From assembly GCA_963674945.2 (NCBI GenBank), contig CAXXWQ010000003.1, positions 96,001 to 160,000 of the forward strand: a stretch of 64,000 bases of DNA, in the 5' to 3' direction. This document shows, piece by piece, positions 1 through 23,104 of this stretch. Both the position numbers and the translations under genes were made by a program. Numbering within the stretch: position 1 is the first letter of the stretch; each line of letters opens with the position of its first letter. The notes below the pieces were generated by a model. It was not told where the DNA came from. It was given only the letters and a program-made list of their open reading frames with translations, and searched no databases. The stretch comes from an uncultured Desulfosarcina sp. Lineage in GTDB: Bacteria; Desulfobacterota; Desulfobacteria; Desulfobacterales; Desulfosarcinaceae.

Positions 1-3000
1 GTTACCGAAAGCAATCCGCCGCCCAGGTTGACGATCCCCTGGGTTCCATATTCGTTGCTCTGTCCGTAATTCGCTGCGTGGGCATAAAATTTTTCTCCGC
101 TGGAATCAGTGAGAAGCAGACTCACATCCCACTCACTTTCATCCCGTGGCACCCCCGTGACATTTCCGCCAACCAGTATATGGATATCGCCCCCGCCCTC
201 GGACCACAGCTGCTGCCTGAGGTCCTCATCGGATGAAGGCAGACCTACGGTGCGGATGGATCCCATCACGTTATTTCGGCCATCCGATCTGCTCTTTAGC
301 TCCAGATCGTCGCCAATCTCCAGAGTAACATCGCCGGTGTAGGACTGGATCGCGCCACCCGATATCTCGAGAGACCCGCCAATTTGCCCACGCACCGTTT
401 TATTGAAGGACATCAAGCTGGATGAAAGATATCCATAAGTCAGGGCCACGCTTTTACCCAATCCGATCACAGTATCCCCCGCAGATGCGAACCAAATCGG
501 TGCGGATTCACTATATATCAACTGCCCGTTAGAGATAACCAGCTGGCCTTCGCCATCATCCAGGGAAGTATCGATGGCCATCACATTCGCGGATTCGAGA
601 TCTGCCCCAGCAGTGATCCGCATGACCCAACTGTTAAATTGCGGATTGTCTTCCGAAGTAAATTGATAAGGTTCGTCGGTGATCGAACCACCGAAGGTGA
701 TGCTTTGTGCGGCTCGCAGGGTCAACGCACCGAAGACCTCATCATCGCCATATCGCTCGGTTGTTAAGGCCCAATCATCAAGGATCGCGAGATCACCGTC
801 GCTGACGATTTCAACGCCCGGAACAACAGTCACTGCAACGCCTTCCGCGTCCAGTTGATCGGCGTTCCAGTCCAGCTCTTCGATGAATCCTTGAGCCGAT
901 TCGGCGATGTCCTTCTGACTGATAACGCCCGCGCCCGATGCCTGCCCTCCTGCCATTGCTGCGATTTCAGCACTCTCGATTCTCTCGAATCCTTCGGCTA
1001 TGATTTGAACGGCACCTTGGATGCGGCCATCCAAGTCCATTTTTACCTCATTGCCTTCCCGTTGCGCTCTGAAATAGACGACGCCCCCCTTGCCGCCCCC
1101 CGTGTTTTCGGCGTCGATGAGGGCCGTCTCGGACAGGGTTATGAACCCGTTGGCGGCGTTCAGGTATACCTCTGCGCCGGTGGATGATGTGCGGGATCCC
1201 GCGATGGAAATGTTGCCCGCCAGCGTCAGGTCGTTGCCCGCATTCAGGGTTATCAGGCTGGATGTATCGTCATTCATGCCGGTAATCGTACCATGGATTT
1301 CGATATTCCCGTCATCCGCCGTCAATTGAACAAGTTGTGCCTGCAGCACGGCATCCGCTGGCAGATACAAATTCGAATCACCGGTGCCATCCTGCCTGCT
1401 GTGCAGGTCGATCTGATGGGTGAACATCCCTTGCGCGAGGATGTTCGCGATATCACCGAGGTCTCCGATATTTTGGGAATCCATCCAGAAACTGCCTCCC
1501 ACACCGGTGCCGGTGGCCAACAGCGTCCCTTCTTCCATTAATACCTTGCCATTTGCGGCAGTCACCTCAACCCCGCCAGCATCCCCCTGTGTACCTGCGG
1601 CGACGGAGATCACCGAACCGCTTTGCAGCCGGACGCCGCCAAGCTCGGAAAGAAGCGCAACGTTTCCACCCGCCACATAGTCGTTGCCATCGACATTGAT
1701 TGTTGCTCCAGGTTGCAGAGCAATGCTGTCCGCCGCGCTGTTACCCATGGATTCAAATATGATCGTGCCGGCCGGAATGTCGATGACGCCGCCATGATGG
1801 ATGGACGCTGCGCGAAAATGCAGCTTGCCGCCGAAACTGTCTGCCGGATCGTACGCATCTTCATTGGATAGGATGGTGATGTTTCCAGCCGTCGACTCCA
1901 CCAGAAAATCGGTGGAGACATAAATTTCCTCACCGACTGCGTCCATACCAAAAAGGCCTTCGGCGCCAATGGCGGATGCTAAGAGTGTGAGGTCGGCATC
2001 GGTCTGCAATTTTCCATCTCCATAAAACACCAATTTGCCGGCAGACTGTAAGTCGACCTGTTTGGTACCGTCGATACGGATCTCGCCTTGCCCCACATCG
2101 ATTGAAGACGCACGGAAGAGTATACGCCCCCTGTCCGTCAAATCGTTTGCATCCGTTTTTTCATGGGTGTTATGCAAAACGATTTGATCCGCGACGACAT
2201 TGGCCGGATGATTCTCCGCAGATGCCTGATGAGCGATCAAGCCGGTATCGATACTCAGCACGCCCTGGACTTGAAGGGTCACATCGTCATGCAAAACCAC
2301 GCTTTCCCGACCTGTGAGCGCGATCGATGCATAGTCGGAAAATGCCGACCATTGAGACTGTGACAGCACCAGGCCATGGGAAACGGAAGCCGTTTGCACA
2401 TCCGGAACGATCTGAATCATATCGCTTCGTAGCGCAAGCATGCCGTTATCGGAAATCATGCTGCCTTCCAGATCCATATGGTTCGTGTCCAACGTAATTG
2501 TATCCGCGGCGTGAACCAGTGCATTTTCCCGAATCGCGATTTCGCCCGAACTGGTCAAAGTGATGGTGCCGCCCGCATCCGTTGCCTGCAGGGCGCTCTC
2601 CTGCTGAAGTTCAATACCGCCCTCTGCCGTTATGGTGATATCTGTAGCTTTCAGTTGTGTCCCTTGGGTCAGTGTCACGCACCCGCCTTTCTCGCTATCG
2701 TCCTCGGCTGCGTTTTTGCGTGCGCTGACCACGATATTGCCGCGATCTGTTTCAAACAAATCGTCCACGACGAGTATCAGGTTGCCGGCGTTCTCGGACA
2801 ACAACGACGCAACCTCGTTGTAGTCTGCCAAAGCCGATACGTCGCTGATCAGCCGTGCATTCACCCCGCTGGCTACCAATGTTCCCGGCGTAAAGCCATC
2901 CAAACCGCCGATGTTCATCGTCCCGCGAATCAAGGTGGTGTCGGATAGCAGATTAATCGTTCCGCCATCGCCTGCGGTATAGCTTTTTACCTCAAACAGG

Positions 3001-6000: not shown

Positions 6001-7841
6001 GGATCGGAGACCTGATAGCTCAGAGAACCTTTCGGTGCGCTGCCGATGGTGAGAGAACCACCAATCGGCAGACTCTTCCCGAGGGTCAAATCATAGCCGA
6101 GTTCGTCTTTCAACTCTTCCGTCTCGGTCTGGTATGGGCCGATGGTAACCGAGCCGTTCAGCAAGCCGTTGAGGACGACGGTCCTTGCATTGATTTGCAG
6201 GCTGCCGGCGTCGGCACCCTCGATATACCCGGATGTCAGGGATTTCAGCGGTGAGGCGCCGCCCGTGTATATCCCGGAGAAGGTTTCAATGATCCCGAAG
6301 CGATCGTATTTGACCACGGTCTCATCCAGGATTCTGTCGTATTGAAGGTTCTCGGGGGCGCTGCTGATATCGTAAATAGTGTTGCCGCATAAAAGCTTGG
6401 TGGTTTGCACCGCGCCGGCTTCATAGACGTAACCGCCTCCACTGAAATCCAATTCGGCGTCGTCCCGGATGATGACTTCACCGACCCCGGCGTCGATGGT
6501 TATGTTGCCTCCCGCGGTCGCCCTTTCGGCAGCGGTTTTTTCCTCGGCATTCAAATAGCCTTCGACGATACCGATGCTGGAACCTTCACTCTTCTTGATC
6601 TGAACGGTTTCCCCTTTTAAATCGGACTCCTTTTGTTGGTAGTCATCCCTTAATTCGACGCTGTTCAGTTGAACGGAGACCACTTGATCCTCGGCCTGAC
6701 GTTGTGTCCATTCACCACTCACATCGATGGAACCGCCGCCACCCATGTAAATGCGGCCCTGGCTGCTCTCGACGGCCGTATCGTCCTCTGGTTGAAGGAA
6801 TAGGGTAACATTCCCGTTAGGCGCCTGTATGGCGCCGTTCAGTTCGATGTTGCTTCCGGCCTGTATCGAAACGGCTCCCGCAGAAAACGAGAAGCTTTCG
6901 TGATAGGCATCGGTCGATTCACTCACCGGCGTGCTGATCACGCTCTCTTCTCCGGTGCGAACCGTATCCGATGCGCGAAGTTCGATGACGCCCTGGTTGA
7001 CAACTGATGTCACGGCTCTTATCAACCCGTCATGGTTAACGACACCGCCATACAAACGGGTCGCACCACCGTCGGTTATGATTGCGCCTTCGGCGGTATT
7101 GGTGACGGTGCCGAAGCCATTCACCTCGAAACTTTCCGTAACCTGGCCTTCGCTGGTGAGTCCTTGGCTGTAATTGGCTTCGGTTCCCGCGCCGATGAAT
7201 ACATCTCCTTGCGGCGCTTCGATGGTTCCGCCGTTCACCACGTTGGGCGCCATCAGGAATACCTTGCCCGATGAGTCGGTCTCGATATGGCCGAAATTGG
7301 CAACGACTGCATCGGATTCCACTTCATCGCCGGAAAAATTCATGATTCCGTTCGTAAAATCGTCTTCCGCCATCATCAGGGCCGACGCTGCCAGGATATG
7401 CACATTGACCTGGGCATCTTTTGAAAACAGTATCCCGTTGGGATTGATCAGATAAACGGCACCGTCGGCGGTCAATCTCCCGTAGATCTGGCTAGGGTTT
7501 TGATCGAAAATTCGATTCAATGCAGCCCAGTTCGTGTTGTCCTGCTGGTCAAAGTGAACCATGGCGTCGGCGCCGATGTCGAATGATTCCCAGTCCAGCA
7601 TCGCCTTGGATTGGTTTTGGTGCACCACAAGCGTGTCGCTGCCCACCTTTTCAAGGTCTTTTACGCCGCTGATGATGTTCTGGATCACCGGCAACTGGTT
7701 TGCTGATGGCTGCACCAAGTTGCCCATGTTCCCATAGAAACCGGGGATGTTAGCTCCGGCAAAACTAACTGCCGGAAGAAAGGTCAAATCGAAGACCAGG
7801 AGAAGAAGCAGTATTTGTTTTCTTATCGTCGTTGGTTTCAT
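1..7841 (-). CDS. Filamentous-haemagglutinin-like TpsA exoprotein (partial, >2600 aa, 3' end beyond left edge)
   Basis: Manual translation from ATG 7841: MKPTTIRKQILLLLLVFDLTFLPAVSFAG (signal peptide)...AMLDWESFDIG...LNRIFDQNPSQIYGRLTADGAVYLINPNGILF (TPS secretion domain, NPNG motif). The same frame reads ...TQGIVNLGGGLLSV at positions 3-44. Absence from the ORF track fits a frame with no stop in the window. Adjacent to TpsB. Confidence 0.92.
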   Translation of the reverse strand, partial: MKPTTIRKQILLLLLVFDLTFLPAVSFAGANIPGFYGNMGNLVQPSANQLPVIQNIISGVKDLEKVGSDTLVVHQNQSKAMLDWESFDIGADAMVHFDQQDNTNWAALNRIFDQNPSQIYGRLTADGAVYLINPNGILFSKDAQVNVHILAASALMMAEDDFTNGIMNFSGDEVESDAVVANFGHIETDSSGKVFLMAPNVVNGGTIEAPQGDVFIGAGTEANYSQGLTSEGQVTESFEVNGFGTVTNTAEGAIITDGGATRLYGGVVNHDGLIRAVTSVVNQGVIELRASDTVRTGEESVISTPVSESTDAYHESFSFSAGAVSIQAGSNIELNGAIQAPNGNVTLFLQPEDDTAVESSQGRIYMGGGGSIDVSGEWTQRQAEDQVVSVQLNSVELRDDYQQKESDLKGETVQIKKSEGSSIGIVEGYLNAEEKTAAERATAGGNITIDAGVGEVIIRDDAELDFSGGGYVYEAGAVQTTKLLCGNTIYDISSAPENLQYDRILDETVVKYDRFGIIETFSGIYTGGASPLKSLTSGYIEGADAGSLQINARTVVLNGLLNGSVTIGPYQTETEELKDELGYDLTLGKSLPIGGSLTIGSAPKGSLSYQVSDPGIVEVVITDTETSLPDTFQADSSLGEIVSENGVNPYTTEYYDDGRPFYKTLLNTEMLSNANLSELQIHAATSLEIESGATLQLQAGGTLVGTARRILHEGAIQIPSGTVKLQTASNFTTDESTTSGSSNPDYIPQQLLGPERIQVTGGGVIEVGGERVDNALSMATKGEVRNGRLNGGKIELLDYANQGEGVVLEAGSSLIVNGGYQIAEDGTVSGGDGGKVDIRGTALILDGDLYGLSLLGQEGGTIDLQAETIDIVAESSTSFLNDGLTPSEGIPSNLLGSLRLAHDRLEDTGFSSIHLISVGDVTIETGAYLTPSNLKLTAPTPMKTADAAIGSGLGDEGVITVFDDFLGENEITIVAGALFSNEKKEYHNFDEATASWLDTTATVTLDDQAGLVAAIYGSIRIEASGIEIGGLLQADAGAISLVKRASSLEENTLHIQDGALLQVKGKNIVKLDESGAGIPSSGTALDAGAVSLESEGQLLFDSGATIDISAAEQTLHYLDTGDGILQGTWIAGDAGSVTFSYLRSEAQDGSLALKGTIDAGHAALDGVGGGSLTFKNNGGDGLRVDSQLVSLIGKDIASLQLISIKPIVFDHDHLALSLSERLGIDTPMIQIADSESGDDFPAIPEIRLSAQFVDISNNGTISSDSPVLGDATLIIDGVQGINVSGAISISNFSNVVLKTEEDLKVEELTYVSGNTGSWSGGLETAASMLLQSDQIYPTSQSRFVFHSSEGSIHIQNSDSGDPNALLSAGGTLIFAADTISQNGTVKAPMGEIVFCGDIRREKGDSGIWEENYTQAEQIVFGEKSVTSTTGEASVFYGALLAENNLSWEAFDHSYATSATVKSDVAAAPSSAVSVYSQAFLAEPSSTIDASGSGKIYSYRFDPGIEGSENPFEINGRMIILPDNPDLLDGAGVYFSGGSMLEAGEYALLPAEYAFVPGALIIEDQGAIDFVQQGTSSRENYTQLIGYLSEVGTDVQDATPHLFTIRPASEVLEEGLFEVKSYTAGDGGTINLLSDTTLIRGTMNIGGLDGFTPGTLVASGVNARLISDVSALADYNEVASLLSENAGNLILVVDDLFETDRGNIVVSARKNAAEDDSEKGGCVTLTQGTQLKATDITITAEGGIELQQESALQATDAGGTITLTSSGEIAIRENALVHAADTITLDTNHMDLEGSMISDNGMLALRSDMIQIVPDVQTASVSHGLVLSQSQWSAFSDYASIALTGRESVVLHDDVTLQVQGVLSIDTGLIAHQASAENHPANVVADQIVLHNTHEKTDANDLTDRGRILFRASSIDVGQGEIRIDGTKQVDLQSAGKLVFYGDGKLQTDADLTLLASAIGAEGLFGMDAVGEEIYVSTDFLVESTAGNITILSNEDAYDPADSFGGKLHFRAASIHHGGVIDIPAGTIIFESMGNSAADSIALQPGATINVDGNDYVAGGNVALLSELGGVRLQSGSVISVAAGTQGDAGGVEVTAANGKVLMEEGTLLATGTGVGGSFWMDSQNIGDLGDIANILAQGMFTHQIDLHSRQDGTGDSNLYLPADAVLQAQLVQLTADDGNIEIHGTITGMNDDTSSLITLNAGNDLTLAGNISIAGSRTSSTGAEVYLNAANGFITLSETALIDAENTGGGKGGVVYFRAQREGNEVKMDLDGRIQGAVQIIAEGFERIESAEIAAMAGGQASGAGVISQKDIAESAQGFIEELDWNADQLDAEGVAVTVVPGVEIVSDGDLAILDDWALTTERYGDDEVFGALTLRAAQSITFGGSITDEPYQFTSEDNPQFNSWVMRITAGADLESANVMAIDTSLDDGEGQLVISNGQLIYSESAPIWFASAGDTVIGLGKSVALTYGYLSSSLMSFNKTVRGQIGGSLEISGGAIQSYTGDVTLEIGDDLELKSRSDGRNNVMGSIRTVGLPSSDEDLRQQLWSEGGGDIHILVGGNVTGVPRDESEWDVSLLLTDSSGEKFYAHAANYGQSNEYGTQGIVNLGGGLLSV

Positions 7842-7992: not shown

Positions 7993-9603
7993 TTAAAATT
8001 GAAACTTGACCTCGAAATACCACTGCTGGTCACCTTTCTCCGTATTTTCCGTCGCCTTCAACGCGTATCCCCAAACAAATTCATAGATGAGGTATTCGGA
8101 AAGCTTTCCACGCACGCCACCTCCCGTTCCGGAAATGAATAGCGATGCGTCCTCTTGAGGAAGCGGGTGGATCAGGCGGAGATTAGCGAAGTCATAGAAT
8201 GCATAGAACGAAAGGTCCAAGGGTTCCCAAAGACCAAGCAGGCTTTCCATGTCCGGCGACCGCCATTCGAACATGCCGTGGACTGCCTTGTCACCTGCCA
8301 CTTCACTTTCCATATAGCCGCGAACACTTTTCATTCCCCCGGCGATATACTGCTCATTGGAAATCAACGGCTGGTCGGCGATCTGTCCATCGAGTCTAAT
8401 GAAAAGGCTGGAGTCCCATGGCATCTGCTGCACTCTATCCAGTCCGAGGGCCATGCAGATGTAATTGCCTCTGGCTTTAAAACGTTTGTCTTTGAATTCT
8501 TCTTCCTTGGTGGCCACACCTCGAAAGGCCAGATTTAGCGAACCGTTCAAGCTAGTGGATCCCCATTTGTCCGGCAAGGATGCGCCGTAAGAAAGCGTCA
8601 TGGGCATGTAGGTGACGGGAGTGCTCTCCGACTCGCCACCCTCCTCAGAGAAACTCAAGTCCTCGTCAAAATCCTTGTAGTCAAGGCCAAGGGTCAGGTT
8701 ATGACGAAAATTCCCCCGGGCGCCTAAGGGGATGATGTTGCGCAATCCGAGGATATACCCTTTTCCAATCACCTCGAAGCCCTGGCCGAATGCGGTATCA
8801 CTGTCTGAAATAACCCCATAAAGGGCCATCATATGGTTGTCGAACAAGGGGGACGGCATCACGTAGGAACCGGCGATGGCGCGGACCTCCTTCGTATCCT
8901 CGGGGCTCGTCTGGTATTGCAGGCTGATAGAGTGGTCACGTTGCCACAGATTGTCGTAGCGCAGCGACGTGTTCAGCCGAAGATCGGTCGTGGCATGTGT
9001 GGATCGGTTGTTGAGTTCCATGCTGCCGTGCAGTGGCAGCTTGTCTTTGACGCGCAATTCGATATCGATCGTTCCCAGATCCTTGCCAGGCATCAAAACG
9101 GGCGCCACTTTCATGTCCGGATTCCGATTGATCGCCGCCAACTCTTTTTGCACATTGGGAAGATGCAGGAACTGGCCCTGCTCCATGGAAGGCAGTTCCT
9201 TGAGGATCTTCTCCATGGTAAAATAGCGGTTGCCCACCACCCGCACCCGCCGCACCGTGCTCTCGATGACTTCCAGCCGAATCGTTCCGTTTTCCACGGA
9301 CTGTTCAGGAATGTTGACCAAGACGGTGGGGTATCCGTTCACGTGATAGTACTTTTCCAGAACGCTACGGGCTCTTTCGACGTCCTGAGAAGTTTTATTT
9401 TCACCAATGAACGCTTGCAGTTCGTTGGACAATGCTGCGTCGTCGAATATGGTGTTGCCACTGAGTTCATACAATTTTATGGGAAAACGGATTTCCTCCT
9501 GGCCCTCTTTGCAGGCCGCATCCTTGACGCCGATATGTGACATCGTAAAGCCCAAAAAAAAGACGAGAATAACAAGAGGCTGAAAAAAAAGTTTATCCGT
9601 CAT
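7993..9603 (-). CDS. TpsB outer-membrane transporter (ShlB/FhaC/HecB family)
   Basis: POTRA-like N-terminus (LEKYYHVNGYPTVLVNIPEQ), SVRGY motif of the L6 loop, C-terminal aromatic EVKFQF; directly upstream of TpsA. Confidence 0.93.
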   Translation of the reverse strand: MTDKLFFQPLVILVFFLGFTMSHIGVKDAACKEGQEEIRFPIKLYELSGNTIFDDAALSNELQAFIGENKTSQDVERARSVLEKYYHVNGYPTVLVNIPEQSVENGTIRLEVIESTVRRVRVVGNRYFTMEKILKELPSMEQGQFLHLPNVQKELAAINRNPDMKVAPVLMPGKDLGTIDIELRVKDKLPLHGSMELNNRSTHATTDLRLNTSLRYDNLWQRDHSISLQYQTSPEDTKEVRAIAGSYVMPSPLFDNHMMALYGVISDSDTAFGQGFEVIGKGYILGLRNIIPLGARGNFRHNLTLGLDYKDFDEDLSFSEEGGESESTPVTYMPMTLSYGASLPDKWGSTSLNGSLNLAFRGVATKEEEFKDKRFKARGNYICMALGLDRVQQMPWDSSLFIRLDGQIADQPLISNEQYIAGGMKSVRGYMESEVAGDKAVHGMFEWRSPDMESLLGLWEPLDLSFYAFYDFANLRLIHPLPQEDASLFISGTGGGVRGKLSEYLIYEFVWGYALKATENTEKGDQQWYFEVKFQF

Positions 9604-12278: not shown

Positions 12279-13694
12279 TTATTTTACGCTAATACCGGTT
12301 TTGCAGCTGTCACGGATGACCTTCATCTCATCCTGGGAAGCCCAGAATTCGTATTTCGAGGTGGCGTCCAGGTTGGTCGGGTTGGACATGTAGGCCATCA
12401 GAGCGGCGACGTGCGTTTGAGCGGCATCGGCGTTGGTGGCGATGACGTAGTTGGCGCCCCAGAAGTCGTAGCGGCCGTTTCTGATGTTGTCACGTTTACC
12501 GATGTAGCCCTGGTAGTTGACGCGGCAGGCGCCGCTTTCGCAAGGATTGGTGAGGTCTCCCTTCTTGTCCGAATCGGCGTAACCCACGGCGCCGGCGTAA
12601 GAACCGACACATTCGATTTCGTCAGAGGAGCCTTTGTTGGTGAGAGTGCGGGGGACGACACCGGAGGTGACGGCAGATTCGTCGTAGGCGTAGGCGATCT
12701 GGGCCAGCGATTGGGGACGCACGACGGACCAGTCGAGGGTGGCGTGGGTACCGGAACCGGCATGGCGGATACACACTACGACATCTTGGCTGCTGTATCC
12801 GAAAGTATTCCAGTCGGTGACCTGCTGGGAGAAGAGCATCTGAGCCTGGGGTCTGCTCAGGTTGGTAACCTCGCCGCCGAGGGAGGCTTCATTGACGAAG
12901 AAAGAGAAGGGCACGATGATCGGCTCGAAAACGGTGAACAGGTCCAGATCGGGTTCGATCGGGGTGAAGATTCTGATCCACCATTTCGCGTCATCGGCTA
13001 CGGGAAACGCGGTTTTGCTCTTTCCGAAGATGCCACCGCCCATGGCGGTTTCCCAATCGCTGATGCGACCGCCTTCCGGGCCCCAGGTGTCGTGATTCTT
13101 GGGTCCGTAGGTGGACTGGTCGAAGCAAATCGGATCGATATCGGAGGTACCCAGGGTGATCTCCTTACAGGTCAAACCGATGGTCACGCCGGTGTCGGCG
13201 GGAGCCGGAATTGTGTTGATGTCAGACCAGGCGCTGACGGCGGCCTCATTGGCCATCAGTCGCTGGGTTGCCGTGCAACCGGTGTCGGGAGTACCACAAT
13301 CGGTTGCCGCACCCGTATCGATCGCGGCGCAGACGCCTTCGGCAGAGGCGAAGGTGGTATACCGGATGGCGATGGTGTCGCCGACGTATCCGGTACGCCG
13401 GGCGCCGGCCTGAGATCCGCCGATACCGATGTTGCCGAAATCGCCGCCGTCGCAAATGGCGATACCGGCGTCACGGTCTGCGGCAGGTCCTGCGTCTTCC
13501 ATCTGGGCGTGACCGATGTCGGAGGTCCCACACTGCATATAGTCTCTCAGGAACTGGGGCGCACCTTCCGTCCAGTATGCGTACTGGGCCGAGGCACCGA
13601 AGATATTGACTTCGCGAAGTTGGGCGGCGGCGGGTACGGCCATCGCCACGGCCATGGAACCGATCATCAGACCCTTAACGATTTTACCTAACAT
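12279..13694 (-). CDS. Secreted Cys-rich PstS/PBP-fold substrate-binding-like protein
   Basis: Signal peptide (AVPAAA); VNIFGASA, GTSDID, CIRHAGSGTHATLD and GAVGYAD motifs typical of the PstS-like fold; 12 Cys. Confidence 0.75.
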   Translation of the reverse strand: MLGKIVKGLMIGSMAVAMAVPAAAQLREVNIFGASAQYAYWTEGAPQFLRDYMQCGTSDIGHAQMEDAGPAADRDAGIAICDGGDFGNIGIGGSQAGARRTGYVGDTIAIRYTTFASAEGVCAAIDTGAATDCGTPDTGCTATQRLMANEAAVSAWSDINTIPAPADTGVTIGLTCKEITLGTSDIDPICFDQSTYGPKNHDTWGPEGGRISDWETAMGGGIFGKSKTAFPVADDAKWWIRIFTPIEPDLDLFTVFEPIIVPFSFFVNEASLGGEVTNLSRPQAQMLFSQQVTDWNTFGYSSQDVVVCIRHAGSGTHATLDWSVVRPQSLAQIAYAYDESAVTSGVVPRTLTNKGSSDEIECVGSYAGAVGYADSDKKGDLTNPCESGACRVNYQGYIGKRDNIRNGRYDFWGANYVIATNADAAQTHVAALMAYMSNPTNLDATSKYEFWASQDEMKVIRDSCKTGISVK

Positions 13695-13765: not shown

Positions 13766-14446
13766 TTAGATTTTTTTACGACGAACGCCGATCAAGCCCA
13801 GAAGACCGGAACCCATCAACCAGGCGGCGGCGGGAACGGGAACTTCGCTTACATCGGTGGGTCCCTCGATAATGAAATCGGCGGTACCGTTGCCATTGTT
13901 GATCATCTTGATGGTGGCATAGTTCAACGGGTCGCCGGTGACGCCTATTTGAGTCCAGAGGTACATCTCATCTTCGGCGTCCGTCAGGTTGCCTTTTCCA
14001 TCTCCCAGGGCGATCAGCCCCTTCAAGGACGGAGTCATCATGTTCATGAAAGAGTTTTGGTCGGCGGTGAGGTGTTCGACGCCGTAGTCGTTGTTTTTGG
14101 ATACGTAGTCTGCTGAGGACCAGAATGAGTTGATGAAGGTGGGTTTGGCTGCGCCGTCCGCCTGCTGCTCATTGATACCCCAGCCCAACCATCCGCCGTT
14201 GTAGGTTGCAAACAAAGAAAAACCGGTGTAGCTGCCGATTGAGACGTCGTCCAGCAAGGTCGCGCCAAAGTTGTCGGCGATGTCGCCACTACCGGTGTCA
14301 TAGCCGGCGCCGAGGTCGTAGATGATTTCGTGGGTGTCGTTGTACATTACCAGGTTCACTGCAAGGGGGGCGAGATCGGCGGAAGCGGTGCCGGCGACGC
14401 CAACCATGACCATAACACCTAAAACAGCTGCGAAAACCTTTTTCAT
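13766..14446 (-). CDS. VPLPA-CTERM (PEP-CTERM-like) sorted surface protein
   Basis: GGAGGT RBS before ATG 14446, signal peptide MKKVFAAVLG...ASA, C-terminus VPVPAAAWLMGSGLLGLIGVRRKKI. Confidence 0.9.
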   Translation of the reverse strand: MKKVFAAVLGVMVMVGVAGTASADLAPLAVNLVMYNDTHEIIYDLGAGYDTGSGDIADNFGATLLDDVSIGSYTGFSLFATYNGGWLGWGINEQQADGAAKPTFINSFWSSADYVSKNNDYGVEHLTADQNSFMNMMTPSLKGLIALGDGKGNLTDAEDEMYLWTQIGVTGDPLNYATIKMINNGNGTADFIIEGPTDVSEVPVPAAAWLMGSGLLGLIGVRRKKI

Positions 14447-14772
14447 TGAATCTACCTCCAAAAATAGTCGATTGATTGTTTTCCAGGCAGATCAGCCATC
14501 CGGCACACGCCTCGTGTTTTCGGTCCCGTAGGCGAGGCTCGTCTCGCCTTCACTTTAATTCCCGTTGGACTCGAACCGGTTACATGGTACTGTTTGTCGG
14601 ACCTGTATCTTTCCGCCCTCCGGTCTCCCGGAGTTTGGCTTTTTCTGGAGGTTGACTGCGAAAAATAAGAAACAAATGGATTACACGGATGATCTTACCA
14701 AGGGTGAAACATGCACTTTTCTTTTCTCAAGAGTTTTCTGCATCACCTCCCCTCTCGGATTTTGTAATAGTC

Positions 14773-14817
14773 AAAAAAAATAGCCCTGAGAACGATTGAC
14801 TTCTTGTTCTCAGGGCT
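14773..14817 (-). terminator. Strong intrinsic terminator overlapping the RNA motif
   Basis: Minus strand AGCCCUGAGAAC-12-nt loop-GUUCUCAGGGCU-A-U8 (perfect 12-bp stem). Confidence 0.88.
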
Positions 14818-14855
14818 TTCTGGTGCCTATATACTTCAGGTCAGCAAAGTACCCC
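14813..14855 (-). promoter_or_regulatory. Candidate cis-regulatory RNA hairpin (antiterminator-like), single copy
   Basis: GGGG-UA-CUUU-G-CUG-A-CC-loop-GG-CAC-CAG-AAAG-CCC; matches the array units at 20033-20379; its 3' strand is shared with the terminator stem. Confidence 0.7.
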
Positions 14856-14983
14856 GCTGTTTGTTTTTTGTTTTTACGGATTGAATGTTAGCTGATTATG
14901 AGTGCGATATTATAATTCAATTAACTTCCGAGTTTCTGGCGCAAAGCCCGAATATTACAATTGTGATGGGTTTCCTGTTCTGC

Positions 14984-17900
14984 TCATCTTGCTTGATGCT
15001 GGATGATTTTTATAGCCGATACGGCCATGGCAACGAACAGACAGGCAACAAACCCCATAATCCACGAGGTGCCGGCCGGCAGCGACCCGACTGTGCCGAC
15101 AAAACAGGATGATCCGCCGTCACCGCTGCCATTGTTCTGTCCACTCAACCGTCCGCTTTCGTTGGTAGCGGCAATCGTATACAAGGAGAAATGCTCGATT
15201 TCGCAAACCAGCATGTTGTTCTCTTCGTCCACCTTTTTCACGGCGATCGTTTCCCAGCGGCGATCGACTTTATCGTACGTATAGGCCATGAGGAACGCAG
15301 GATTGATCCCACCGGCCGCCTTTAAAGCGGCTTCGGTATAAGGAATGTTAATGGTGATCGGCATGTTGAACCAGGTACCCGATGGGCCAAAATCGATTAC
15401 CTTGCCCACAGGCACTAAATCGGAATCCATGGTTGGTATGCCGAGTCCAGTTGCCTCGCCGATGGAAATGGTTGTCGTTGTTCGTAAGGCACCGGCAGGA
15501 ATGATGACTTGCGTGCCGTTTATGGCGCTGCCAGCATCGGTAACTTTTATAATCGTGTTATAGGGAACCGTAAGATCGTAGATGCCTTCCTCCACGACCA
15601 TGATTTCAGGCTCGGTGCTACCGTCCAGGTCCACCGTGAAGCTGAATACCGATGTCCACCACGAATCATCATTGACGATCCGGGCACGCCAATAATAGGT
15701 GGTTTCATCTTCGAGATCTTCATCGACCCGCCATGCGGTCTTGCCGACAGTGGTTTGGCCGACCGCGACCCTTCCCGTTATCGCGCTGTCACGGTACACC
15801 TCAAATTCGACTTGAATGGACGATTTATTGTCTTCCGACACTACCATTACGCCGATCACCGGCGTCTGTGTGTTGACGGTTCCGCCGTTGAATGGCACAG
15901 TGGGAATTATTCCCGGTGTTGCCGTGGCCGCCTGGCTCACGCTCACATTCACATCCCGAAAGACCGTGTCCGTTCCGTCGCCTACCGTCAGGGTGAAGGT
16001 ATAGTCGTTGGCGCCGTTATCCGCATAGGCTGGCGCAGTGAAAGTCACCGACACCCCTGTTTTGGGGAAATCATCGATATCATCGGACGTGGACCAGATG
16101 TAGGTCAGATCATCCCCATCGGCATCGCCAGCCGTTCCGCTCAAGGTCACCGTGGTGCCCTCAACGGCCGGATTGGGGGAGGCCGTGATACCGGATATTA
16201 CCGGCGCAGTATTGTTCTGGCTGACGGTGAAGGTGACGTCCCGGGCGGCCGAGTCCGTGCCGTCGCTTACCGTCAGGGTGAAAGTGTAGTCGTTGTCTCC
16301 ACCCTCAACGTATGCCGGCGCGGCAAAGCTCGCCGTAGCACCGGTCTGCGGAAACCCGCCAACCCCTTCTTCCGTGCTCCAGGTGTAAGTCAAGGCATCC
16401 CCGTCGCCATCGCTGGCCGCGCCGCTCAAGGTTACTGTGGCGCCTTCGGCGGCCGGGTTGGGGGATGCCGTTGCGCTGGATATTGTCGGAGCCGTATTTT
16501 CCGAGGTGACGGTGAAGGTGAAAGTCTGGGTAACCGAATCTGTGCCGTCGCTCACCGTCAGCGTGATAATATATTCATTATCACCACCATTAATGAAGGC
16601 CGGCGCCGTAAAGGACCACAGTTGCTTGTCCGTGGGCAATCCGGCGAGGGGCCTGGCCGAAGACCATGCGTACGTCAGCGCATCTGTCACATCGACGTCG
16701 ATCGCCTCTCCGGATATCAACACCCGCGTTCCCTCGGTGCCCGAATCGGGATCTATTGTTGCATTCAAAATCACGGGGGCAGTGTTGCCCTGGGTGACGG
16801 TAAAAGTGACGGCCGCGGTGTCCGTGTCCGTGCCGTCGCTCACCGTCAACTTGAAGGTGTAGACGTTATCCCCGCCGTCCACGTAGGCCGGTGCGGTGAA
16901 GCTCGCAGTGGCGCTGGCCTGCGGAAAGCCGCCGAGCCCGTCGCCCGTGCTCCAGGTGTAAGTCAAGCCGTCCCCATCGCCGTCGCTGGCCGTTCCACTC
17001 AGGGTTACTGCTGTTCCTCCGGGGCCCGACACGGGCGACGCCGTCGCACTCTTGATTTCGGGGGGCTCGTTGGTCTGGGAGGCGGTGACGGTAAAAGTGA
17101 CGGCCGCGGTGTCCGTGTCCGTGCCGTCGCTCACCGTCAACTTGAAGGTGTAGACGTTATCCCCGCCGTCCACGTAGGCCGGTGCGGTGAAGCTCGCAGT
17201 GGCGCTGGCCTGCGGAAAGCCGCCGAGCCCGTCGTCCGTGCTCCAGGTGTAAGTCAAGCCGTCCCCATCGCCATCGCTGGCCGTTCCACTCAGGGTTACT
17301 GCTGTTCCTCCGGGGCCCGACACGGGCGACGCCGTCGCATTCTTGATTTCGGGGGGCTCGTTGGTCACCGGAGGATTTAGAATGACGCTGCCGTCGGGAT
17401 CGATTCGTAGCGCCGCGCAGTAGTCCGTACTCTGATCCGGGCCCCGGTTTAGAGAGAATTCGCCATCAAGAAGTATGTTGTGGTATAAGTACATGGTTAC
17501 GGATTGGCCTTCGGCCAGGGGGGCCAGATTTACCTCTCCGGTTTCGGCATTACGGTTAAAACCGGCGAAGAATCCCCCAGGAAAAACGCCTCTGTTCATT
17601 TGGGTATGATAGGCGTTATCTCCGGCCGCCTGCCCCACAAAGATACCGCATTGTGGGTTATCTATACAATTTAAGTACATCTTGTTTGCTGAACTGAGAA
17701 AATTACTCATTTGGCTTTTGCTGATATTCGGCTCTACTTTTGATGTGGTCGCAAATATCATGTGTGACCCAAAAGTACTAGATGATGATAAAAATGAAAA
17801 AAAAGTGGCATTTAACTGGCTCCAATCGCTTACTGCGGAAAAATCTTCCAGTCCAAAGCCTTGTTCGACAAGTGGATAATCACGCTCACTGTAAAAGAGG

Positions 17901-18130
17901 TTGTAGCCGGGGGTAACTTCATCCCATGTAAAAAAAAATCCCAAGTCCATTAACATTTCATTCGTACTGGGGTCATATATCACCATTATAAGATGAAAGT
18001 CTGTAAAATCAGGAGTTTCGGAATGAACTTTTGTGACAAACAGAAAGAGGAATGCGAAAAGGAAAACGGATACCCTTTTTGCTATATCATCTTGGAATGC
18101 TTTCAATTTATCCTCTTGATATATCGCCAA
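14984..18130 (-). CDS. Surface protein: N-terminal domain, five PKD/Ig-like repeats, ZU5-like region and GGxxCF-type C-terminal membrane anchor
   Basis: Repeats of the type N(E/T)xPxI..ATASP...VTLSG.ASD.DGD.LTYTWS...F.AP...YTF.LTVSDGTD; ends GDGGSSCFVGTV + TM helix + basic tail. TTG start uncertain. Confidence 0.85.
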   Translation of the reverse strand: MAIYQEDKLKAFQDDIAKRVSVFLFAFLFLFVTKVHSETPDFTDFHLIMVIYDPSTNEMLMDLGFFFTWDEVTPGYNLFYSERDYPLVEQGFGLEDFSAVSDWSQLNATFFSFLSSSSTFGSHMIFATTSKVEPNISKSQMSNFLSSANKMYLNCIDNPQCGIFVGQAAGDNAYHTQMNRGVFPGGFFAGFNRNAETGEVNLAPLAEGQSVTMYLYHNILLDGEFSLNRGPDQSTDYCAALRIDPDGSVILNPPVTNEPPEIKNATASPVSGPGGTAVTLSGTASDGDGDGLTYTWSTDDGLGGFPQASATASFTAPAYVDGGDNVYTFKLTVSDGTDTDTAAVTFTVTASQTNEPPEIKSATASPVSGPGGTAVTLSGTASDGDGDGLTYTWSTGDGLGGFPQASATASFTAPAYVDGGDNVYTFKLTVSDGTDTDTAAVTFTVTQGNTAPVILNATIDPDSGTEGTRVLISGEAIDVDVTDALTYAWSSARPLAGLPTDKQLWSFTAPAFINGGDNEYIITLTVSDGTDSVTQTFTFTVTSENTAPTISSATASPNPAAEGATVTLSGAASDGDGDALTYTWSTEEGVGGFPQTGATASFAAPAYVEGGDNDYTFTLTVSDGTDSAARDVTFTVSQNNTAPVISGITASPNPAVEGTTVTLSGTAGDADGDDLTYIWSTSDDIDDFPKTGVSVTFTAPAYADNGANDYTFTLTVGDGTDTVFRDVNVSVSQAATATPGIIPTVPFNGGTVNTQTPVIGVMVVSEDNKSSIQVEFEVYRDSAITGRVAVGQTTVGKTAWRVDEDLEDETTYYWRARIVNDDSWWTSVFSFTVDLDGSTEPEIMVVEEGIYDLTVPYNTIIKVTDAGSAINGTQVIIPAGALRTTTTISIGEATGLGIPTMDSDLVPVGKVIDFGPSGTWFNMPITINIPYTEAALKAAGGINPAFLMAYTYDKVDRRWETIAVKKVDEENNMLVCEIEHFSLYTIAATNESGRLSGQNNGSGDGGSSCFVGTVGSLPAGTSWIMGFVACLFVAMAVSAIKIIQHQAR
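16793..17366 (-). repeat. Near-perfect tandem duplication, 291-bp period (97 aa)
   Basis: 16793-17075 and 17084-17366 are identical apart from about three substitutions seen by eye. Confidence 0.92.
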
Positions 18131-18267: not shown

Positions 18268-18450
18268 TCATTTTTTTAAAATTTCCTCAAACTTCTCTAC
18301 CCGCCCGACATTGCCCTGGGTGTAGTTGATCTTGATGTAACCGGTAAAATTGCTACTCCGTATACTCATCAAGTACTCGAACAGCCTCTTAATCTTTTCA
18401 CCCTGAGGGGACTTTGGTTTTTCAATGACTTTTGCCGGCATATTTGACAT
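18268..18450 (-). CDS. Small basic protein, DUF2292/YezD-like
   Basis: 60 aa; helix followed by FTGYIKINYTQGNVGRVEKFEEILKK, resembling the G-x-hydrophobic strand-G-strand-E pattern of DUF2292. Family assignment by eye only. Confidence 0.6.
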   Translation of the reverse strand: MSNMPAKVIEKPKSPQGEKIKRLFEYLMSIRSSNFTGYIKINYTQGNVGRVEKFEEILKK

Positions 18451-18741: not shown

Positions 18742-19494
18742 TCAATTTGCTCCCGTTCCTCTAAGGCGTTGTCTACCTACCACCAATACCAAACCGCTGG
18801 CGAACATGATCGCCGCACCGGGAAGCGGCACCTCGCTGGTCCGGGAGACGACGGCCACAAGATCGTTAAAATCTGCGTCTCCGATGTTGAGCTCTTCGAA
18901 CCCGATGAGCCACACGTCATTGGTGTCGGCGGTGTAATCGGTGCCGAAGAGCAGATTGAAGTTGCCGAGCAGTTCGTCATCCTCTATGGCAAAGGCCACG
19001 AAGTGGTCCTTGTTTCCCAGGATGTTTTGCGAACGGTCGGCGGACCAGCGCTCCTGGGCCTCGCCGACCCATTCTCGCCGGGTGTCGGCAAAGGTATACC
19101 CGTCCAGCATGGTGAAAGTCGTATCCTGCTGGATGATGGTGTTCCTTACAAAAGCTTCGCTTCCCAGTACCTTCTGGTACCCCGGGTCTCCGGCGCTGCT
19201 GTCTCCGTTCCAGAGGCCCAGTTCTCCTCCCCATCCCGACTCCCGGTAGGTTGCATCCACGCGGAAGGTGTCTCCGGTCTTGCCGAAAACAATATCAGAA
19301 CCATCTTTCAGGTAATAATCAGACATGCTAAGTTCCCACGTGCTGTCCATCGTCTTGGTGCTTCCCTCTGGCACGAACAACTCATTGAAAACCTGGTAAA
19401 GTTCTGCGTTCTCCAGTGTTACACTCATGCTGGCTTGACTTTGGGAGGCAACCAGCAGCAATCCCGACAAAAACAATACGAAAACTCTGTTCAT
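18742..19494 (-). CDS. DUF4114-containing VPLPA-CTERM surface protein
   Basis: AGGAG RBS before ATG 19494, signal peptide, WLIGFEELNIGDADFNDLVAVV (DUF4114-like), C-terminus VPLPGAAIMFASGLVLVVGRQRLR. Confidence 0.85.
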   Translation of the reverse strand: MNRVFVLFLSGLLLVASQSQASMSVTLENAELYQVFNELFVPEGSTKTMDSTWELSMSDYYLKDGSDIVFGKTGDTFRVDATYRESGWGGELGLWNGDSSAGDPGYQKVLGSEAFVRNTIIQQDTTFTMLDGYTFADTRREWVGEAQERWSADRSQNILGNKDHFVAFAIEDDELLGNFNLLFGTDYTADTNDVWLIGFEELNIGDADFNDLVAVVSRTSEVPLPGAAIMFASGLVLVVGRQRLRGTGAN

Positions 19495-19552
19495 TGATTT
19501 TCTCCTTATTATCATTTTCCAAAAAGAGTTGTTTGATAGACAACCTTTTAAT

Positions 19553-19939
19553 TTACGCTGTTTCCTCGCAAGAGACTTTCACCTTGGTAATCCGTTCCAA
19601 TCGCATTTTCTGAAAATCAAACACCTTTGGAACTCGAAAAATCCGATATTCCTTGTCGAAAGACAGTGCCATGCCGCAACCATTGGCACGAATCACATGG
19701 CCACTTAGTTTGATACAGCTGTTGTGGGTCGTTCCGAACAATTCATCGCGCTGAACCAATAACTCGATCGACACCTTTTTTCCAATGGGAAGTTGAAGAT
19801 CGGTCTCTACCAACGCGCCGCCGACACTCACGTTGGAAGTAACCGTCTGGCATTGCACGTTTCCGTTCAAATCGTCCGAAGCAAAGATCAAGCAGGGTAA
19901 TTTCAGGTTGAACCGTCTTTCGGTTCGGCACTCTTCCAT
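19553..19939 (-). CDS. PilZ-domain protein (c-di-GMP receptor)
   Basis: RTERR (RxxxR) and NVSVGG (D/NxSxxG) motifs; AGGAG RBS. Confidence 0.85.
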   Translation of the reverse strand: MEECRTERRFNLKLPCLIFASDDLNGNVQCQTVTSNVSVGGALVETDLQLPIGKKVSIELLVQRDELFGTTHNSCIKLSGHVIRANGCGMALSFDKEYRIFRVPKVFDFQKMRLERITKVKVSCEETA

Positions 19940-20032
19940 GGACGACTCCTTTACCTTTTACGCTTTGTCGATAATTCCGGTTCATCGAAAGTTCAAAAAA
20001 GATGCACGAAGAGCCCTTCGCGGCACTTCCCG

Positions 20033-20379
20033 CGGGTTTTCCGGTCCCAACAAAAAACGATGGTCGGCAAAAATCCCGGGTAAGTTTTCAAAAGGGCTCT
20101 CCGGTCCCGAAAAAAATGCGGTCGGCAAAGGTCCCGTATGGATGTGGAAAAGGGCTTTCCGGTGCCGGATATACCGGTCGGCAAAGGTCCCGGTTGAAAT
20201 CACCCCGGAGTTTTCTGATACCGGCGTGACGCCGGTTGGTAAAAGTTCCGGGTAGAAATTCGGGGTTGGAGGCAGATATCTCGTCCCAATCTTTGTATTT
20301 GGAGGCCAACAAAGTATCCGTGGTGCTTTTCCGTTGGACTTTCTGGTGCCCCTTTTGTCCAAGATCGACGAAATATCCA
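20033..20379 (-). ncRNA. Tandem array of six copies of a candidate structured RNA motif (53-68 bp period)
   Basis: Units at 20033-20078, 20094-20135, 20152-20191, 20205-20251, 20273-20320 and 20335-20379; plus-strand consensus GGGCTTTCYGGTSCC-N(variable)-GGTCGGCAAARKWCCC; compensatory changes between units. Confidence 0.72.
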
Positions 20380-20657
20380 TCGAATGAGCCTTCAAGGGGT
20401 AATTCGATGTATTGTTTTGGACCTATTAACCATATTTTTATATTCTCCGATATCCCTCGCGAGTGGGTTTGTTTCGCTATTTTTTTGCTTTATTTGGTGC
20501 GATCAAAGGTATGACTATATCAATCGTATAGTTTGAAGATGTGGCGATAGTACGGCGTCATGGGTATGAGATTGGTATGAAAAATATGCGTGGAAAAGGG
20601 GTGAGATAAGTTTGATGGATTATAGGTGAGTGTTATAAAGGTAATACCTTGGGATAG

Positions 20658-20673
20658 TGCAAAAAGAACGCCT
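20658..20673 (-). promoter_or_regulatory. Possible sigma54 (-24/-12) promoter
   Basis: Minus strand AGGCGTTCTTTTTGCA, GG-N10-GC spacing; points into the array and the PilZ/VPLPA genes. Confidence 0.45.
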
Positions 20674-21074
20674 TATGCGATCCCTGCTTGTCGAGGATAT
20701 CAAAATTGCATGATACGATGATCGATTAAAATACAATACTTCCAATAGGGACTGTTTTGCCACTTCCCTGGCCCGGCTGCTGACAAAGGCGGTTATCGGT
20801 GATTAAGAATTCAGCACCGCCGCCGACCTTTGGCCGTTTTGACCGAAAACTGAAACTATGCCATTTTGGCGTAGTTTCATACGAGAAAGCTTTGATCAGA
20901 TATGGATGCAGGATGGATTTTTTAATCAGATTTTCGTTAGAGACTATCACTGAGACGAAAAGCGAGTGGCAGAAGGAGTTGAACAGCCTAAGCTTGAATC
21001 GTTTGATACTTGGCCATTTATCTTTGTCGCTAATTTGTCATTTGGTTCTTGTTTTTTTTGATTTCCCCGATCTC

Positions 21075-21776
21075 TTACATGTATCGCGCCACCCACAATG
21101 TTGCTTCCAGACGGTTTTTCACTTCGATTTTCCTGTAGATGTTGAAAATGTGGCTTTTCACGGTGTTCAGACTGATAAAATATTCGGTGGCGATTTCACT
21201 GTTGGTGGCACCGGCGGCGATAGCGATTAAGATCTCCTTTTCACGTCGGGTCAGTTTGACTTCGGCCGTCACAATACTCGCCCGATAGGCCCGTGAGTCC
21301 ATGAGAATTTCGGAAGTGGTTTTACGGGAATACCACAACTCGCCATTTAATATTTTCTTAATCCCCTTGAGGAAGTACTGTGGCTTCTCATCGGCATAAA
21401 AGACACCGCGAATTCGTTTCTCAATGGCTTGTCGTTCAAAGGCAGCACCGACTTTCGGATCGATATTGAATAGTGCAATGGGCTGATCCAGTGGATTGGG
21501 CACCCCGCCAAGGTTGAGTTTGAACCAGATTGCATTGGCATCCATGGAAAAACTGTCCCATAGGATAAGATCAAAAGGGCAGGCTTCATCGCTGCAGCTC
21601 CAATGTTCCATTATTTCAAAATCGCTGTTTTGTTCCATTCCATCGTTCAATACCGCCTTGAGCAAACAGTTCTGAAAGGCATTTTGGCCGACCAAACCAA
21701 TTCTCCAACGGGCACCATCCGGTTCCAAGGTTTGTTTGTCTTCCATTGTGGCGCGTGTCTCAAATTCTGGCAGCAT
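21075..21776 (-). CDS. LuxR-family regulator, VpsT/CsgD-like
   Basis: Degenerate REC domain, GIRGVFY-like segment (RIRGVFY), GELWYSRK, C-terminal LTRREKEIL...TVKSHIFNIYRKI HTH. Confidence 0.88.
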   Translation of the reverse strand: MLPEFETRATMEDKQTLEPDGARWRIGLVGQNAFQNCLLKAVLNDGMEQNSDFEIMEHWSCSDEACPFDLILWDSFSMDANAIWFKLNLGGVPNPLDQPIALFNIDPKVGAAFERQAIEKRIRGVFYADEKPQYFLKGIKKILNGELWYSRKTTSEILMDSRAYRASIVTAEVKLTRREKEILIAIAAGATNSEIATEYFISLNTVKSHIFNIYRKIEVKNRLEATLWVARYM

Positions 21777-21847: not shown

Positions 21848-22537
21848 CTATTTCTCAACACCCCGAAAACGGTAGCCAACACCGCGAACCGTTTCGATAT
21901 AGCCGGCGCAAGCTCCCATCTTGCGTCGTAGGTTGACGATGTGCATACCGATACTGGTTACGGCACAATTTTCCCCATGAATCGATTTGGCAATTTCCGA
22001 ACGGTTGAATACCCAGCCGGGTTTTGACATCAGAATTTTGAGCAGTTTGAATTCACTGGCAGTCAGGTGAATGGGTTGGCTTTCAATACAAACCTTGTGC
22101 CTTCGCAAGTCGATGTGCAATCCATTATATCGTATCGTGGTGTCGTTGTTTTTCGGTTTATCAGATCGTGAGCGAAGCACGGCCCGTACACGTGCGGTCA
22201 GGACGACAGGATTGAACGGTTTGGTGATAAAATCAGCGGCCCCTGAATCCAAATACGTTATGATGTCCTGCTCGCTGCTGCTGCCTGAGAGCATCACCAC
22301 CAGAATATGCATCGTATGCATGTTTCCTTTTAGCCGCCTGATTACCGACAACCCATCCATGCCCGGCAATATGGTATCTACGATCAATAGATCAATCGAA
22401 TTCGACTTGACGACTTCCAGTGCCTCTTCCCCGGAATCGACTGCAATTACCTGAAACTTCAACCTGCGAAGGCACTGATAGATCAAATCACGATACACTT
22501 CATCAGCGTCAGCGACCAGTATCAAATCTTTTCCCAT
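21848..22537 (-). CDS. OmpR/PhoB-family response regulator (no adjacent kinase)
   Basis: REC (LLIVDTILPGMDG, ITKPF) and winged helix ending IETVRGVGYRF. Confidence 0.92.
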   Translation of the reverse strand: MGKDLILVADADEVYRDLIYQCLRRLKFQVIAVDSGEEALEVVKSNSIDLLIVDTILPGMDGLSVIRRLKGNMHTMHILVVMLSGSSSEQDIITYLDSGAADFITKPFNPVVLTARVRAVLRSRSDKPKNNDTTIRYNGLHIDLRRHKVCIESQPIHLTASEFKLLKILMSKPGWVFNRSEIAKSIHGENCAVTSIGMHIVNLRRKMGACAGYIETVRGVGYRFRGVEK

Positions 22538-22589: not shown

Positions 22590-22620
22590 GATAAGATTTG
22601 GTTAGAAACTTGTTAGAAAA
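22590..22620 (-). promoter_or_regulatory. 11-bp-period direct repeats upstream of the OmpR/PhoB-type gene
   Basis: GTTAGAAA at 22601 and 22612, with a weaker GATAAGAT at 22590. Confidence 0.4.
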
Positions 22621-23104
22621 AAATAAAGGAACCAAACTTTGAAAGGAACATTGATTGGTTGTGTTAAAATCGGGTTTGATCCCCGCTACAACCCGAACGA
22701 TGGAGGTGCTGACGTGCTTTTAGATTTGCGTTTCGACAATCGTGAGATGTGTCAGTGAACTGAATGGTTGGATAACATTCCGTGTTGAATTATCCGTTGA
22801 GTAGTCCGATGGTTGATATGCCATGTGAGGACTCTAATTTGGAACGATGTTTTCTCTAAAAAGATACGCAAAAAAAGAGAAATTACCTCTCTCATCAGCC
22901 GTCCGATCAAGTTTAAAATTATCAAATGTTGAAGGTTATCCTCGCTTTCTGCCGCTGAAAATCGCTGTCAACCTTCCCGGTTTCTGAACTTTTTACATGA
23001 GGATTTCTTAAAACGCTCTTTCTGGCCCTAAAAACATCGATTCAAGGCCTGAAAACGGCCCTGTTTTTAACATAACCCCTCGATTTTTTGACGTTCTGCT
23101 TGGT

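Follow-up and report, generated by a model that had tools for sequence, protein, structure and literature searches.

Ahead of a run of surface-protein genes in an uncultured Desulfosarcina sp. lies a tandem array of six similar units, and the locus raises the question of what such a repeated RNA motif is, what it may bind and what it may do there. We analyzed a 64,000-nt stretch of DNA around it (the window), and positions given without a contig name are those of the window. The array was confirmed: it comprises six copies of a bulged hairpin of ~45 nt, all on the minus strand, of which three are intact and three have decayed. The six unit starts reported in the first-pass annotation were reproduced to within 1 nt, and so was its division into three conserved gene-proximal units (20152, 20094 and 20034) and three degenerate ones (20336, 20274 and 20205). 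Read along the minus strand, the array and the element that follows it are:

20336-20378, minus strand: array unit 1, half-decayed, with a perfect 3' half (half-site profile score 15.5; nhmmer E 0.0009)
20274-20319, minus strand: array unit 2, decayed, 5' half kept (profile score -1.1)
20205-20251, minus strand: array unit 3, decayed yet a stable hairpin (profile score -3.5; fold z -5.75)
20152-20191, minus strand: array unit 4, intact hairpin (covariance model 52.8 bits, as a member of its training set; profile score 39.5)
20094-20135, minus strand: array unit 5, intact hairpin (covariance model and profile)
20034-20077, minus strand: array unit 6, intact hairpin (covariance model and profile)
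19995-20026, minus strand: weak terminator-like hairpin with a U run, containing the strand 20008-20018

The training set of the covariance model, 43 copies in all, contains the three intact units and a further copy at 14.8 kb, so these four match it by construction; within the window the model scores only them (46.7-60 bits), and the distal units are absent from its matches at E<=5. For these we used a half-site profile from 77 independent copies, with 1,938 tiled 66-nt windows as the null (99.5th percentile -5.1, maximum 0.5). Since it scores 15.5 against a null maximum of 0.5, the unit at 20336 is clearly a half-decayed copy; the units at 20274 and 20205 are weak, yet in register and within the top 0.5% of the null.

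Across 77 distinct copies found near the gene of a 57-aa protein (described below), 97% of the cells pair and two-sided changes are observed in 7 of the 13 pairs, values reached by 0-1 of 500 shuffles, in an alignment that is structure-fitted and holds related sequences (in all covariation alignments used here the motif served as anchor or template, and related sequences are included). The fold and the compensatory changes first proposed from the window's own copies are thus borne out across copies. Single intact units fold no better than shuffles (z -0.1 to -1.2), so the support for the fold comes from covariation; the apical loop is freely variable, with lengths between about 3 and >20 nt. 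Rfam 15 has 0 matches at the gathering score in the whole window, two chance matches only (E 2.1 and 7.9) over 19900-20700, and no match over the hairpin at 14 other loci, which places the motif outside that catalogue, as the first-pass annotation had suspected. A description of the hairpin and the 57-aa protein was not found in the literature: a term search of the accessible text of PMC8632094 and PMC5737381 returned neither motif nor protein, the supplement of PMC11109978, a study that analyzed a Geobacter and a Desulfobacteraceae genome, may list the motif unnamed, and subscription papers and bioRxiv supplements were outside the scope. Judged from its sequence, we regard the hairpin as a well-supported regulatory RNA that is missing from Rfam.

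The main use of the motif appears to be a single hairpin that overlaps a terminator and travels with the 57-aa protein, a use that the first-pass annotation overlooked while getting the fold right. The copy it had reported at 14.8 kb is real and belongs to this type, as seen from the elements around it:

14811-14856, minus strand: canonical single hairpin overlapping a terminator (covariance model 60 bits)
14773-14817, minus strand: intrinsic terminator with a U8 tail, its 5' arm beginning inside the 3' strand of the hairpin
14744-14752, minus strand: strong Shine-Dalgarno-like site without a properly spaced start codon
14482-14648, minus strand: c-di-GMP-I-like (GGC variant) riboswitch (RF03167, 52.8 bits, E 1.1e-11)

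In 64 of the 78 distinct copies near the protein gene, the 3' strand of the hairpin forms the base of the intrinsic terminator that comes next, and an overlapping terminator is found in 96 of 122 distinct copies in a set collected with a simpler pattern. Among the 96 terminator-bearing copies, the overlap is 7 nt long in 88, and the terminator state is favored in 84 (median 4.5 kcal/mol), which predicts an OFF default that a bound ligand could reverse. The riboswitch at 14482-14648 is below the gathering score of 59, carries a ~92-nt insertion and lies in series after the terminator; other hairpin loci are likewise in series with c-di-GMP-I riboswitches. At most related loci, as at 14744-14752, a Shine-Dalgarno-like site is seen 20-30 nt past the terminator. 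The exact heptamer follows 35 of 78 copies as compared to 67 of 2,352 background tiles, and among the 53 distinct strong sites located up to 260 nt past the hairpin, 44 lack a start codon at a distance of 2-10 nt downstream. Shine-Dalgarno-like sites can stabilize mRNA, and these orphan sites are possibly such stabilizers.

A loose pattern of the hairpin matched 9 times in the genome (7.1 Mb) and not once in 3 Mb of sequence generated by an order-5 Markov model. The genome holds six strong copies, 6/6 within C3:15-116 kb, plus weak ones. A strict pattern applied to 61 relatives matched only 2 genomes and was too narrow, as the later covariance-model results indicated. An exact pattern scan of one genome per GTDB species yielded 63 loci; 37 of these, in which the outer helix is present, were kept together with one locus from a viral collection (38 in all), and the other 26, lacking the outer helix and scattered over taxa, were rejected as probable chance matches. 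The kept loci come mostly from Geobacteraceae, Syntrophobacteraceae, Desulfobacterales, other deltaproteobacteria and Nitrospirota (two are labelled just Proteobacteria or Pseudomonadota). A sense ORF begins within 850 nt downstream in 34 of the 38, in line with the sense orientation described earlier for the window. According to profile searches, the downstream genes encode VPLPA/PEP-CTERM, two-partner-secretion and PKD proteins, proteases, metallophosphoesterases, alkaline phosphatase, PstS-like proteins and ornithine-lipid synthase, and many others have no family match. The hairpin is widespread in Desulfobacterota and Nitrospirota, and usually single outside this array. At three loci (L013, L021 and L054), the first gene after the terminator encodes a 129-157-aa protein without family match, whose N-terminus looks ribbon-helix-helix-like by eye. 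The viral-collection locus (L009, a 45-kb contig classed as viral) has a hairpin-terminator copy before a lipoprotein-like ORF.

The array itself is unusual. There are no terminators between its units, and terminator-less repeats were found only here and in one Desulfatitalea orthologue (G337), which has two intact units and remnants of others; wherever else copies occur in tandem, each hairpin comes with its terminator and the pairs stand in series. In a third orthologue (G023), the pilZ and 57-aa genes are present without the array, so the array is dispensable. These comparisons indicate that it is a rare, derived, terminator-less form of the motif. A Sigma-70 scan found no promoter-like site before it on the minus strand. 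The genes on either side of the array, together with one promoter element, are:

22597-22629, minus strand: Pho-box-like 11-bp triple repeat upstream of the next gene (profile score 18.5)
21848-22537, minus strand: orphan OmpR-family regulator (best match PhoB, below cut-off)
21075-21776, minus strand: CsgD/VpsT-like LuxR regulator, upstream of the array (PF21155 and GerE; CsgD model E 8e-35, below cut-off)
19553-19939, minus strand: PilZ-domain gene, first after the array (Pfam PF07238, E 5.9e-7)
18742-19515, minus strand: PEP-CTERM-like surface protein, from its translation (signal peptide, VPLPGA-hydrophobic-basic tail)
18268-18441, minus strand: 57-aa protein (P0001; helix and beta-hairpin), candidate RNA-binding antiterminator
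14984-18130, minus strand: PKD/cadherin-repeat surface protein (Pfam)
13766-14461, minus strand: VPLPA-CTERM surface protein (TIGR03370, 27.7 bits, over cut-off)
12279-13694, minus strand: protein with a PstS-like binding domain (PF12849; TIGR02136 weak)
7993-9603, minus strand: ShlB/TpsB-type outer-membrane transporter
3-7841, minus strand: ORF of >2,613 aa after the ShlB-type gene, running off the window, putatively TpsA

The protein at 18742-19515 has no family match itself, and its L030 orthologue weakly matches VPLPA-CTERM/PepA. The true phoB of the genome is at C3:2061905. Within the PKD gene, four ~285-nt repeats are found at 15935-17366, two of them 99% identical.

The 57-aa protein is encoded 1.6 kb downstream of the array and is single-copy in the genome. 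Its family (67 near homologues; 217 clusters at 50% identity; lengths 36-123 aa) has no Pfam or NCBIfam assignment. In a sample of 151 genomes from the order, 9 have the protein, all within the 15 that have the RNA, and the figures for 65 genomes from the family are 10, all within 21. In a phylum sample of 151 genomes, strong matches to either are limited to the window's genome and G227, with four weak protein matches (E>6e-4) and one weak RNA match that do not coincide. A strong protein match implies an RNA-positive genome in all three samples, which overlap, each include the window's genome and contain non-independent kin. Metagenome loci were also selected with the protein as the sole criterion (the best 80 of 222, with several near-duplicates); of these, 60 have the RNA and 20 have no RNA match; in 52 of the 80, the RNA lies within 500 nt downstream of the protein gene on the same strand. 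Over 57 loci, the median distance from the stop codon to the hairpin is 58 nt.

The protein is modelled as one helix and a beta-hairpin (pLDDT 81.6). This beta-hairpin carries conserved aromatic and basic residues; near-invariant positions in it include Y35, K37, N39, Q42, R47, E49 and F51, among others, and the alternation along the strands would place them on an open sheet face. A homodimer model, in which strand 1 pairs with its own copy to give a four-stranded sheet, scores 0.46 as compared to 0.00 for the best control (contacts agree at least 92%, pLDDT at least 74). This level was attained by 20 of 30 solved pairs and by 1 of 23 single chains. No PDB, PDB-wide or viral model was matched significantly in fold searches (best Z 3.2, which is not evidence of a new fold), and a PDB sequence search with the protein had no match.

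With these results, we infer that the 57-aa protein binds the hairpin RNA; most likely it is a small antiterminator of a new kind, with the hairpin as its target. The reading that we find probable is an antiterminator that works like LicT/RAT and is unrelated to it, in which a dimeric protein clamps the hairpin and blocks the terminator. A promoter, often PhoB-type, would drive transcription into the hairpin and terminator, and without bound protein the terminator would win and transcription would stop. The 57-aa protein, probably a beta-sheet dimer, would bind the bulged stem and sequester the 7 nt that the terminator needs, so that polymerase could enter genes for PEP-CTERM proteins, adhesins, two-partner secretion, phosphatases and PstS-like proteins; readthrough would often pass a cyclic-dinucleotide riboswitch in series. 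Because its own gene usually lies before the first terminator, the level of the protein, not a sensory domain, would set the switch.

The closest analogue is the LicT/RAT system, in which, according to PMC3575810, a dimeric domain of 56-57 aa recognizes a terminator-overlapping hairpin whose internal loops are asymmetric and whose apical loop is variable. The bulged hairpin overlapping an intrinsic terminator and the small protein are shared with these BglG/SacY/LicT CAT-RAT pairs (PMC3575810). However, no CAT_RBD match was found among 135 family members at E<=0.1, the 57-aa protein is a helix plus a beta-hairpin with no PRD domains among its 36-123-aa homologues, the RNA differs in sequence and size and matches no Rfam family, and the genes concerned here are for surface proteins and phosphate scavenging, with decoy-like arrays and sRNA forms. 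Our system appears to resemble LicT/RAT in its working and not to be a member. DUF2292/YezD is similar to the protein in size and in a GxIxIx-F/Y-xxGxIxxVE-type hairpin pattern, and is its Atlas neighbor at 0.79, but PF10055 is matched by only 2 of 135 members, below the cut-off (best E 0.017), which makes DUF2292 a lead and not a membership. The ANTAR proteins (e.g. EutV) also use one trans-acting protein to open several terminators, through twin hexaloop hairpins; here there is a single long bulged hairpin instead, and no ANTAR or receiver domain in the 57-aa family.

As for the array, it would be a derived cluster of binding sites, without terminators, in the leader of the pilZ/PEP-CTERM/57-aa gene run. 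It most likely soaks up the protein and thereby sets a threshold, and would act as a multi-site decoy or an autoregulatory leader. The first-pass annotation had offered a protein-binding leader or sponge of CsrB-like logic, or a tandem riboswitch. Protein binding is supported and a sponge is plausible, for the 57-aa protein and not for CsrA; since no repeat has an expression platform of its own, a tandem riboswitch is unlikely. CsrB and RsmY are sponge RNAs with repeated protein-binding hairpins carrying GGA loops. The array shares the repetition of hairpins in a single RNA, but its loops are variable and without repeated GGA (for which identity with CsrB/RsmY was rejected), its conserved features are stem bulges, and its unit serves elsewhere as a cis attenuator. 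Bound protein might also turn the array leader OFF. An 11-nt strand after unit 6 (20008-20018) is complementary to the 3' strand of unit 5, and this pairing is 8.9 kcal/mol better than the unit 5 fold and disrupts the weak terminator-like hairpin at 19995-20026, through which protein binding could act on the leader. This would be a negative feedback on the gene run, including the protein's own gene. In the Desulfatitalea orthologue a compensatory change matches the pairing, and the U run is missing, for which reason we consider the OFF switch doubtful; simple titration by the array is more economical.

A link to phosphate is suggested by direct repeats with an 11-bp period, for which the half-site was picked after inspecting some of the loci. 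Of the 57 RNA loci, 24 have such repeats upstream (3.2 on average in shuffles, 3-5 at other spacings, 1 in the downstream control), and so do 31 of the 68 protein genes (none at spacings of 9, 10, 12 or 13; 8 on the reverse strand). A strict triple-box regular expression matched 1 site genome-wide, and a profile trained on the repeats was used instead; by this profile the genome's pstS-phoU-phoB promoter ranks 6th genome-wide and the promoter of the 21848-22537 regulator is the 8th best distinct site. The promoters of the family thus have 11-bp boxes in common with pstS. This is not so directly upstream of the array: the sites immediately ahead of the array and of the 57-aa gene score 5.7 and 9.9, respectively, and are not strong Pho-like boxes, and phosphate control of the array would therefore be indirect, e.g. 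via the upstream OmpR-family and CsgD/VpsT-like genes. PMC3333781 describes a 7+4 pattern for the E. coli Pho box and a 6+4 period for that of D. vulgaris PhoB, and the latter, differing from the 11 observed here, speaks against the link. On balance, the hairpin system most likely acts under phosphate starvation, as far as promoter sequences can tell. More high-scoring Pho-like boxes were seen at G000:C3:8614, 11334, 36095 and 58586 and at C4:1921846, and several of these lie in the 14-116 kb island that also holds the hairpins.

The hairpin also occurs in a stand-alone form, consisting of the hairpin, a CU-rich anti-Shine-Dalgarno-like linker, a separate terminator and a conserved promoter bearing 11-bp repeats. 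Three examples are:

G000:C3:40464-40585, plus strand: stand-alone ~100-nt form
C3:1888733-1888832, minus strand: stand-alone ~100-nt form
C3:366561-366668, plus strand: stand-alone ~100-nt form

It is also found at L217-L244, with up to 6 model matches per genome, and has no Rfam match. At E<=0.001 its model has matches in 33 of the 65 family genomes, among them weak matches and cross-matches to the terminator-overlapping form. The middle helix is CUCU/AGAG or CUCC/GGAG, as compared to CUUU/AAAG in the other form. Searches around it found no conserved antisense ORF and no convincing local target of the CU-rich tail. Many genomes with this form have no protein match, including the single-contig G009 and G015; a DUF2292 search in 5 such protein-less genomes had no match, and the flanks were without profile match. 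Because the hairpin occurs in genomes without the protein, a second partner or a small ligand is possible. From its architecture, the stand-alone form seems to behave like a ~100-nt sRNA.

Other explanations have to be weighed against the antiterminator reading. Against this reading, the linkage of gene and hairpin may be shared operon membership, the protein resembles no known RNA-binding fold, and a quarter of the protein-selected metagenome loci have no RNA match. It is rather unlikely, in our estimate, that the hairpin is a protein-binding switch with a more widespread cognate factor, or several diverged ones, the 57-aa gene being a linked neighbor in shared Pho/PEP-CTERM operons. Stand-alone copies, and some terminator-overlapping ones (G015, G345, G002, G350, G094 and G155, some of them fragmentary genomes), do lie in genomes without a detectable homologue, but no genome with a strong protein match is without the RNA, the hairpin follows closely on the gene's stop codon, and the stand-alone form is set apart by its middle helix. 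Somewhat less likely again is a small-molecule ON riboswitch, perhaps a remote relative of the c-di-GMP-I P2 arm, sensing a phosphate-stress or cyclic-nucleotide signal. The layout of an aptamer overlapping a terminator would suit it, as would the hairpins without protein, the adjoining c-di-GMP-I riboswitches, PilZ and VpsT-like genes, and the loose pattern that matched the P2 arm of real c-di-GMP-I riboswitches (L016, L018 and L056). The c-di-GMP-I (GEMM) architecture has a GNRA tetraloop arm and a receptor arm. Our motif resembles it in the upper stem and shares its gene neighborhoods, often in series, but is one ~45-nt hairpin with a variable apical loop, without GNRA tetraloop, second arm or receptor, and its next element is a terminator. 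The covariance model leaves the window's c-di-GMP-I riboswitch unscored, and Rfam clan CL00126 matches that neighbor (14482-14648) and not the hairpin, which agrees with the original remark that the motif is not c-di-GMP-I. Repeats without platforms and 5'-capped sRNA-like copies would also ill suit a metabolite sensor, and the tight linkage to one protein gene would be left unexplained.

An improbable variant is that the protein binds the hairpin yet loads a processive antitermination complex, or protects or processes the transcript with the orphan Shine-Dalgarno-like site as stabilizer. The long operons (>20 kb in the window) and the frequent absence of a start codon after that site are in its favor; however, nearly every controlled point has its own hairpin and its own overlapped terminator, sometimes twice in series, which argues for local, non-processive action. 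Finally, a REP-like or mobile DNA repeat without RNA function is very improbable and largely refuted. Several copies per genome, the clustering of strong copies in one island and a patchy distribution would fit such a repeat, but the copy number is low, the terminator overlap is constant, the covariation is G-U-compatible, and the orientation relative to genes, whose randomness the first-pass annotation had named as the mark of a REP-like repeat, is fixed.

Beyond the antiterminator itself, we tentatively propose, with less confidence, a self-contained RNA-protein circuit of Desulfobacterota and Nitrospirota. Its ~45-residue sensor-less helix/beta-hairpin dimer would be a new family of RNA-binding antiterminators. 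The hairpin would serve as an ON switch overlapping the terminator ahead of surface and phosphate-scavenging genes, as multi-copy decoys in the present array and, in sRNAs of ~100 nt that are driven by Pho boxes and have anti-Shine-Dalgarno tails, as the 5' cap. With the cyclic-dinucleotide riboswitches in series, the outcome would be an AND gate with a threshold for a floc or biofilm coat, its inputs being low phosphate, the level of the protein and a second messenger. To our knowledge, the known protein antiterminators fall into just a few families. If true, our reading would add an unrelated RNA-protein pair from anaerobes that have been little studied, assign a function to a family of small proteins without annotation, tie phosphate starvation to PEP-CTERM/adhesin surface coats, and offer a 57-aa protein and a 45-nt RNA as a compact orthogonal switch for synthetic biology. 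Should the partner be wrong, the hairpin would still be a well-supported regulatory RNA.

Near the sRNA form, a conserved 44-aa acidic ORF is found on the opposite strand at 380-600 nt (L217, L219, L224, L228 and L238), in a convergent arrangement with the sRNA form; in many cases a hydrophobic ORF of 26-30 aa and a conserved hairpin come after it. In L224 the acidic ORF lies beside a tRNA-like sequence, and the window's genome has four copies of it (C4:2457080, C4:2207684, C4:978010 and C3:386073).
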